This document shows positions 1 to 391 of a stretch of DNA of 391 bases, in pieces. The notes under the pieces were generated by a model, which was given only the letters and a program-made list of their open reading frames with translations, did no database searches and was not told where the DNA came from. Location: assembly GCF_003334815.1 (NCBI RefSeq), contig NZ_QOWO01000131.1; one strand, given 5' to 3'. How positions within the stretch are numbered: the stretch's first letter is position 1; each line of letters begins with the position of its first letter. The DNA is from Escherichia coli (GTDB taxonomy: Bacteria > Pseudomonadota > Gammaproteobacteria > Enterobacterales > Enterobacteriaceae). The translations under genes and the position numbers were made by a program.

Positions 1-75
1 CGCGAGGCATCGTCTTAACGAGGCACCGAGGCGTCGCATTCTTCAGATGGTTCAACCCTTAAGTTAGCGCTTATG
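1..75. mobile_element. Terminus of an IS186-like insertion sequence (IS4 family); element body extends beyond the window start
   Basis: + strand 53..75 reads CAACCCTTAAGTTAGCGCTTATG, whose reverse complement CATAAGCGCTAACTTAAGGGTTG matches the IS186 terminal inverted repeat as I recall it. The adjacent flank (minus strand GGGGGTAAAACC) fits the G-run/A-T core/C-run targets IS186 prefers. The boundary at 75 is approximate to about 1 bp. Identification is from memory and was not searched. Confidence 0.6.
53..75. repeat. 23-bp terminal inverted repeat of the IS186-like element
   Basis: Sequence CAACCCTTAAGTTAGCGCTTATG ends at the junction with the toxin-side flank. The second copy of the inverted repeat would lie at the other end of the element, outside the window. 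Confidence 0.55.
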
Positions 76-96
76 GGTTTTACCCCCGCGTGGTGG

Positions 97-249
97 CTAC
101 TTCTTCGATTCGTAAGCGAGAACTGCCTTAAACTCCATACCACGTTCTCTGATACTCAACTCACACAACGAGTCGCCTACCATCAGCGTGAATCCCAGTA
201 CTGTAAAACACAGCACTATGATTGCCACAAGGGCATATTTTGTCAGCAT
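97..249 (-). CDS. hokE: Hok/Gef family type I toxin (HokE-like small membrane toxin), 50 aa
   Basis: Minus-strand ATG at 249..247 is preceded by GGAGG (260..256) with a 6-nt spacer; 50 sense codons run to TAG (99..97). Translation: [50 protein letters not shown]. It has an N-terminal hydrophobic transmembrane stretch ([19 protein letters not shown]), then the conserved D-S-L-C-E block and C-terminal A-Y-E-S motif typical of Hok/Gef toxins. Closest to E. coli HokE by recollection, but not identical to the sequence I remember, so the paralogue and strain are unverified. Confidence 0.9.
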
Positions 250-287: not shown

Positions 288-391
288 TGTTTGGGTTCGA
301 ACGTAAGCCTCAGGTTGTACTGACCCCAAAAAGTTGGACAGTTAAACACGAGGCATATAGGTCTGATTCCGATATTCAATTGGAGTCAGAC
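288..391 (+). ncRNA. sokE: Candidate Sok-like antisense RNA (antitoxin), complementary to the toxin mRNA leader; 3' end not defined
   Basis: Inferred from the candidate promoter and hok/sok locus architecture. The transcript would be antisense to the toxin leader and could end at the 361..391 stem-loop, but no U-tract is visible because the window ends there. Extent is speculative. Confidence 0.25.
361..391. repeat. Inverted repeat forming a 10-bp stem with 11-nt loop (GTCTGATTCC / GGAGTCAGAC)
   Basis: 361..370 pairs with 382..391. On the + strand RNA there is one G-U wobble; on the minus-strand RNA one A-C mismatch. It lies in the toxin mRNA leader and the candidate antisense RNA region. 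The window ends at the stem, so downstream context is unseen. Confidence 0.6.

Follow-up and report, generated by a model that had tools for sequence, protein, structure and literature searches.

Organization of the locus

The stretch of DNA analysed here (391 bases, called the window throughout) is 100% identical to a segment of E. coli B REL606 (NC_012967 2774120-2774510), and at least 80% of its length is matched in 830 other genomes. It contains, in this order, the end of an IS186 element, a hok gene and the end of an IS150 element, which is the arrangement of E. coli B. As annotated by RefSeq, the 6.4 kb around the window (locus L001, whose positions minus 3000 give those of the window) contain these features as part of the series iap, short CRISPR array, IS186, Hok/Gef toxin gene, IS150 and cysH (Table 1). 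The right terminal inverted repeat of IS186 is complementary at 23 of 23 positions to the left end of the element (L001 1737-1759).

The hok gene, whose best NCBIfam match is HokA at a score below the cutoff, is boxed between the two insertion sequences, with the end of IS186 located 21 nt past the hok stop codon. On the other side, the mok/sok control region upstream of hok is broken by IS150 at window position 317. The Rfam sok model matches positions 234-391 with 41.6 bits, under its gathering score of 59, and this match is only partly meaningful because it runs into IS150 sequence. Two inverted repeats are also found upstream of hok, one with 16-nt arms (271-286/296-311) around a TTCGAA palindrome and one with 23-nt arms (276-298/322-344) that reaches into the IS150 end.

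IS186 transposes actively in K-12 and inserts at GGGG(N6/N7)CCCC with a target-site duplication (PMC5009759). The right flank of the present copy, GGGTTTTACCCCC, fits this motif and the left flank, GGGGAAAAACCC, differs. Comparison of the left flank with the right flank GGTTTTACCCCC (window 76-90) shows that this copy has no target-site duplication, which implies a later rearrangement. The left end of IS186 adjoins the last spacer of the CRISPR array, which has four to five repeats (L001 1442-1760), and the L001 annotation contains no cas genes between iap and cysH. An IS186-mediated deletion or recombination appears to have removed the cas operon in E. coli B.

Table 1 Coordinates of the features in the window, in locus L001 and in two further IS186 copies.
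Feature	Position	Strand	Remarks
IS186	L001 1737-3075 (1339 bp)		RefSeq: 'IS4-like element IS421 family transposase'
Annotated IS186 transposase CDS insL (370 aa)	L001 1792-2904	+	stop 97 nt before the window
T3C7 tract of IS186	L001 2865-2874		126-135 nt upstream of the window, directly after the hairpin
Whole tail ORF	L001 2879-3067, open from 2849	+	stop codon TAG at 3065-3067 (window 65-67), within the right inverted repeat
3′ end of the +1-frame tail ORF of IS186	window 1-67	+	codons from 2, 5, 8 and so on; encodes …KNARHRLNEAPRRRILQMVQPLS, then stop
CGAGGC copy 1, CGAGGCATCG	window 3-12 (hexamer 3-8)	+	gCG AGG CAT CGt = A404 R405 H406 R407 of the 424-aa fusion
CGAGGC copy 2, CGAGGCACCG	window 19-28 (hexamer 19-24)	+	aaC GAG GCA CCG = N409 E410 A411 P412
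CGAGGC copy 3, CGAGGCGTCG	window 27-36 (hexamer 27-32)	+	cCG AGG CGT CGc = P412 R413 R414 R415
IS186 right terminal inverted repeat, CAACCCTTAAGTTAGCGCTTATG	window 53-75	+	element ends at 75
hok CDS	window 97-249	-	hok-family toxin
IS150 (complete, 1443 bp)	L001 3317-4759; window part 317-391		starts TGTACTGACCCC… / TGTACTGACCCCAAAAAGTTGGAC at 317
IS150 transposase CDS	from window 342	-	
Fourth CGAGGC	window 349-354	+	inside IS150, 33-38 nt from the IS150 end; over the last codons of the minus-strand transposase CDS
C6 IS186 copy	L090 465-1576 (NZ_CP032667.1)		body and tail in one frame
C6 IS186 copy	L091 466-1576 (NZ_CP032237.1)		body and tail in one frame

The CGAGGC copies in the IS186 end lie in an open reading frame

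A reading of the window from its letters alone (the sequence-only reading) had drawn attention to a cluster of near-identical CGAGGC copies just inside the IS terminus. The cluster is real: the three 10-mers are 90-100% alike, and the three hexamers sit 17-50 nt inside the inner edge of the right inverted repeat. The fourth copy had been placed outside the IS and called probably coincidental. It is not host DNA, being part of IS150, and as a single copy unrelated to IS186 it is indeed most likely a coincidence.

The same reading had offered, as an alternative, that the repeats could reflect the coding sequence of the transposase C-terminus. The annotated insL frame does not cover the segment, having stopped 97 nt upstream of it; an open frame that is +1 relative to insL, reading …SLWRITKMVIWSLQVAIRGTVSLTAYKTQLKNARHRLNEAPRRRILQMVQPLS up to its stop codon, does. 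Residue numbers in this frame refer to a 424-aa query in which both frames were joined at the C run where they overlap. Copy 1 falls at the end of the last predicted helix of the fused transposase. Copy 2 is in a codon phase that differs from that of copies 1 and 3, and its AAC GAG is the only part kept as DNA in relatives. Copy 3 encodes R413, which is nearly invariant among 24 full-length family members, and R415, which is invariant. The only two AGG codons in the whole of IS186 are those within copies 1 and 3.

How unusual the cluster appears depends on the background. Shuffles of the whole window are expected to contain 0.12 CGAGGC copies, and none of 200 reached four. Synonymous resampling of the encoded peptide, NARHRLNEAPRRRI, produced at least three copies of any hexamer in 5e-4 of draws; the peptide alone therefore does not force the repeat. 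A hexamer triple is present, however, in 0.3% of 42-nt windows of 225 kb of fetched bacterial DNA, so that one case in a genome scan is unremarkable. The recurrence of CGAGGC in IS186 is thus most likely due to chance. An origin by tandem duplication was rejected, as the peptides of IS186 and of its relatives are equal in length here, with no indel. No RNA family was found over positions 1-76 in an Rfam scan of the window, and a promoter and terminator scan returned nothing near the CGAGGC copies.

Subterminal repeats of this kind had been put forward as transposase-binding or regulatory sites of the IS186 end. Three near-identical 10-mers within 34 nt, at a short distance from the inverted repeat and commoner than the peptide alone predicts, would suit that role, as would the presence of all three copies in a 96%-identical E. 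albertii element. The comparison of the two ends of IS186 points the other way, as the left 100 nt contain neither CGAGGC nor its reverse complement GCCTCG, and GCCTCG occurs nowhere in the 1339 bp of the element. Furthermore, the nearest diverged relatives have lost the copies while keeping the inverted repeat and the peptide. In a Candidatus Erwinia dacicola relative (83% amino acid identity), H-R-L-N-E-P-P-R-R-R is encoded as CAT CGC CTC AAC GAG CCG CCC AGA CGA CGT, with no CGAGGC; the homologous place in alphaproteobacterial relatives (60-71%) encodes the same peptide, likewise with no CGAGGC. The count is zero in the Erwinia dacicola, Pseudaminobacter, Labrenzia and Amaricoccus relatives, all with a conserved TTAAGTTAGCGC terminus and peptide. 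The copies also occupy two different codon phases of a conserved ORF, and in the IS4 family, transposases such as those of Tn5 and Tn10 bind to the terminal repeat itself. The repeats are thus part of a coding frame, with no more conservation than codon constraints would give, and we find a role as binding sites scarcely credible.

A lineage-specific role in translation, in which three Shine-Dalgarno-like GAGG motifs and two rare AGG codons would slow ribosomes at the end of the ORF and thereby favour action in cis, draws on the confinement of both AGG codons of the element to copies 1 and 3, on the improbability of the repeat given the peptide and on its position 17-50 nt from the inverted repeat. 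Such a role appears highly improbable to us, given that conservation of the repeats is limited to E. coli and E. albertii and that hexamer triples are as frequent in ordinary DNA as stated above. We consider it probable (at about 0.8) that codon choice over the last ~21 codons of the IS186 transposase gave rise to the three CGAGGC copies as a by-product; these codons would belong to a +1-frame tail reached by recoding.

The +1-frame tail resembles the C-terminus of in-frame homologs

The proteins closest to the 424-aa query (60-71% identity) end at about 364 aa, just where InsL does. More distant in-frame homologs (41-43% identity, 425-442 aa) align over 96-98% of the 424-aa fusion, and the alignment runs through the tail with the motifs S-L-W-R, A-I-x-G and R-x-L-x-E-P-P-R-R-R. 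The conserved tail consists of two helices, the first beginning with S-L-W-R, followed by a basic end, R-x-L-x-E-[PA]-P-R-[RK]-R. Four alphaproteobacterial relatives carry the same tail in their DNA, there too in the +1 frame, and scanning one genome per species added 80 further loci. When a tail HMM was compared with the three frames (E <= 1e-3), 58 of 71 loci had the match in the +1 frame and the remaining 13 in frame 0; E-values went down to 1e-29, and the +1-frame loci came from many phyla. When 24 full-length sequences (conceptual fusions together with proteins that are in frame by nature) are aligned, W374 and R415 never vary and R375 and R413 hardly do. Of the three codon positions, the third shows the most substitutions in the tail and the second the fewest.

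The AlphaFold model of the 424-aa fusion has a mean pLDDT of 80 and shows tail helices at residues 373-389 and 394-408, followed by the basic end at low confidence. The only significant PDB fold match of the fusion in a Foldseek search is the Tn5 transposase, over its full length (E = 2e-8). The Y-(2)-R-(3)-E-(6)-K signature is present (YRLRWQIELAFKRLK) and, like the DDE motif, lies in the 370-aa product. The NCBIfam model transpos_IS4_1 matches with 132.7 bits (cutoff 115) and ends at residue 350.

The last two observations could also be accommodated by a relic, in which an ancestral longer transposase was frameshifted, the 370-aa InsL is complete and the repeats lie in decaying, untranslated DNA. 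RefSeq, which gives the 370-aa protein without a frameshift note, would be in line with this. A relic would gather stops, as the degenerate Erwinia dacicola copy L013 did; the tail is instead open and protein-like in the +1 frame at 58 loci from many phyla, with substitutions distributed over codon positions as described. A nucleotide signal is moreover kept at the junction of the frames (a C run, the T preceding it, and a hairpin with compensatory changes, see below). On this evidence, a relic is improbable, and the comparisons support the view that the segment with the repeats codes for the conserved arginine-rich C-terminus of the IS186 transposase.

Separate translation of the tail from a start codon of its own was rejected. 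Neither the GTG nor the ATG of IS186 is kept in relatives, where K-M becomes K-L, Q-I or K-A, and the invariant W374 and the near-invariant R375 are located upstream of the ATG.

The closest relatives from outside Escherichia are three Candidatus Erwinia dacicola copies (L013, L015 and L052, 74-83% amino acid identity), which seem to be degenerate in part. A stop interrupts the tail frame of L013. In L015, extra Cs in the run put the tail in frame, and there is a stop in the body.

A pyrimidine tract and a hairpin mark the frame junction

The IS186 subgroup comprises 28 distinct junction sequences. A pyrimidine tract of 8-11 nt (median 10) is found in all 28, and in all of them a T precedes the C run, which always ends on a 0-frame codon boundary. 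The base after the run is T in 26 loci; it is A in the two copies of IS186 itself, from E. coli and E. albertii. The codon after the run is UGA in 10 loci, AGA in two and an ordinary sense codon (TGT, TGG, TCT, TAT and others) in 16. IS186 thus has AGA and not TGA after the run, and its 0 frame continues for 10 codons further than that of such relatives.

Immediately 5′ of the tract lies a hairpin (median -10.9 kcal/mol in the subgroup), the stem base of which is 7-12 nt from the end of the run. In IS186 it takes the form UCCAGC-cauc-GCUGGA, extendable by two A-U pairs (-10.8 kcal/mol, z = -3.4). The stems vary and yet stay complementary (CAG/CTG, CGG/CCG, CCG/CGG, GCC/GGC), with paired amino acid changes such as Q..L and R..P. 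RNAalifold returned no consensus structure for the 24-sequence junction alignment because the hairpins sit in several registers, and explicit pair counting was used instead. In a gap-free alignment, 69.6% of cells are paired, compared to 57.7% upon shuffling (a value of 69.6% was reached in 0 of 500 shuffles) and 30-43% when the partner was slid. The covariation score is 0.31 versus 0.15 in controls.

Loci with an in-frame tail provide a natural comparison. In these relatives the prolines are encoded by CCT or CCG and there is no run (longest C run 3.3 vs 5.25, p = 1.6e-5). Over the junction stretch compared, the in-frame protein P0067 is equivalent to the two-frame composite of L022 joined at the run. 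A single T separates the in-frame locus L047 (T4C5) from the +1 loci L048, L071 and L085 (T5C5). The best local hairpin energies of the +1 loci and the in-frame loci are not significantly different (p = 0.12), and the hairpin is retained at some in-frame loci.

The arms of the recoding hairpin read CGAGGC...GCCTCG in several alphaproteobacterial relatives (L017, L023, L025 and L045; for example, GACGAGGCCGTCGCCGACAGCCTCG). This is a different place from that of the repeats in the IS186 tail, and we treat the likeness as a coincidence.

A more distant subgroup (loci L053-L089, e.g. L057 at about 2060-2095, L065, L066 and L074), with members in Acidobacteria, Verrucomicrobia, Planctomycetes, Bacteroidota and other taxa, also has the tail in the +1 frame. 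Its 0-frame peptide S-P-W-G-Y (TCC CCC TGG GGN TAC) varies synonymously, which places the frame change beyond the C run, in a linker of 8-16 codons where a search for slippery motifs gave none.

Transcriptional slippage is the proposed route to a full-length transposase

We propose that recoding 126-135 nt upstream of the window would join the tail to the catalytic body and yield a protein of 424 aa. In the most likely mechanism, RNA polymerase would slip on the T3C7 tract next to the hairpin and drop one C. A transcript lacking one C would encode a 424-aa product (junction peptide …SLDFPPEVPDPK / …IIQPSLDFPPEVPDPK) that is collinear with the in-frame homologs, and the unslipped transcript would encode the 370-aa product, a DDE domain devoid of the tail, which may be an inactive or regulatory truncated form. 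Judging from the reading frames and the junction signal, production of the tail probably depends on a programmed slip of one base. We extend this, with a little better than even confidence, to a general proposal: IS186, which ranks among the most active insertion sequences of E. coli K-12, and a large multi-phylum clade of the IS4 family may make their full-length transposase only via programmed +1 recoding, most likely by hairpin-stimulated slippage of RNA polymerase on a T(n)C(m) tract of ~10 nt.

The tail might instead be reached by the ribosome, through +1 frameshifting in which peptidyl-tRNA-Pro slips from CCC to CCA or CCU while a slow codon (the rare AGA in IS186, UGA in relatives) occupies the A site. 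Such re-pairing is possible in all 28 loci, the site is preceded by the motif F/S-P-P, and Pro-Pro and Pro-stop contexts stall ribosomes. The 10 loci with CCC TGA match a documented shift site, CCC_UGA, used in E. coli pheL (15%) and in Listeria phage tsh (PMC5009743), and IS186 has CCC AGA. The 16 loci with ordinary sense codons after the run are not readily explained in this way, and neither the 8-11-nt pyrimidine tract nor the invariant T in front of the C run would have a role. The hairpin, with its base only 7-12 nt upstream, would fall within the ribosome; no GGAG or AGGA that could act as a Shine-Dalgarno-like stimulator occurs in the 15 nt preceding the IS186 run, a stretch taken up by the hairpin; and, according to a 2016 recoding review, no IS that uses frameshifting of this type is known. 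Considering these points, we regard a ribosomal shift as a rival to be taken seriously, though an unlikely one, and polymerase slippage as the better account of the junction.

In-frame alleles and annotation of IS186

The two-frame form of IS186 with seven Cs (C7) is the best match in 2592 of the 2721 E. coli records that carry the element. An in-frame form with six Cs (C6) matches perfectly in 145 of the 2721 records (see Table 1 for examples), and some of these C6 calls may be long-read homopolymer errors, since one is in resequenced MG1655. RefSeq labels C6 copies as 'frameshifted' pseudogenes and the 370-aa protein as intact. The exact 424-aa protein has been deposited from 130 contigs, and the tail alone has been deposited hundreds of times as a 'hypothetical protein' or as 'IS4 family transposase, partial'.

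The repeats themselves are ordinary, and the part of interest is the probable programmed +1 recoding in IS186. The transposase gene of this element would be annotated ~54 codons short in thousands of E. coli genomes. If our proposal is correct, the in-frame C6 'pseudogenes' are constitutive full-length alleles, the 370-aa InsL is the unslipped, tail-less product, and IS186 and IS421-like elements need a different annotation. Recoding would also mean a further level of regulation for an element behind many adaptive mutations in laboratory evolution, and it would offer an E. coli-native, genetically tractable case of hairpin-dependent polymerase slippage.

Comparison with known systems

The IS4 family is defined in part by the absence of a frameshift (De Palmenaer et al. 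2008), and the 2016 recoding review lists frameshifting only in the IS1, IS3, IS5 and IS630 families. The IS186 clade is IS4-like by sequence and fold and yet departs from this hallmark, its tail being in the +1 frame at 58 of 71 loci. Should the recoding be genuine, the IS4 family would lose a defining criterion. The searchable literature yielded no description of recoding in IS186 or its clade, where an earlier mention, for instance in ISfinder notes, is possible, and the GeneTack supplements do not mention IS186.

Several known systems share some of these properties. The closest is an IS630-family element of Roseiflexus, in which, as PMC5009743 describes the work of Penno et al. 2015, the polymerase makes transcripts minus one C at T5C5 only with an adjacent hairpin. 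In both elements a T(n)C(m) tract of ~10 nt, roughly the length of the RNA-DNA hybrid, directly follows a stable GC-rich hairpin, the loss of one C would bring the +1 downstream frame into register for the full transposase, and several Bacillota relatives of IS186 have the very tract of Roseiflexus, T5C5. IS186 differs from it in belonging to IS4/DDE_Tnp_1 with a Tn5-like fold, in its T3C7 tract and in that slippage is here proposed from sequence. The Roseiflexus shift fuses the DNA-binding OrfA to the catalytic OrfB, whereas that of IS186 would add a tail of ~60 aa after a complete catalytic domain. If slippage is genuine in IS186, its family would be the second one known to use heteropolymeric, hairpin-dependent slippage.

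The CCC_UGA sites of pheL and tsh (PMC5009743) resemble 10 of the 28 junctions in having CCC followed by UGA, with +1 re-pairing as CCU, and pheL, like IS186 (UUC CCC CCC AGA), has Phe before Pro. Most relatives of IS186 differ from them in carrying sense codons after the run, and a long pyrimidine tract and an upstream hairpin are not features of the pheL and tsh sites.

In the IS3 and IS1 elements with OrfA/OrfAB organization, of which IS150 is one, the frames overlap as in IS186 and recoding sets the amount of full-length transposase. Unlike in IS186, the shift is -1, it occurs at A-rich heptamers with downstream structures, and the junction falls between the DNA-binding and catalytic domains.

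The transposase of Tn5 (IS50) shares with that of IS186 its membership of the IS4 family and is its only significant full-length fold match in the PDB. It is made from one frame, and its regulator Inh is truncated at the N-terminus, whereas the short form of the IS186 transposase would be truncated at the C-terminus. In the Tn5 synaptic complex, the transposase dimerizes through its C-terminal helices, which suggests a reason for the IS186 transposase to need a tail.
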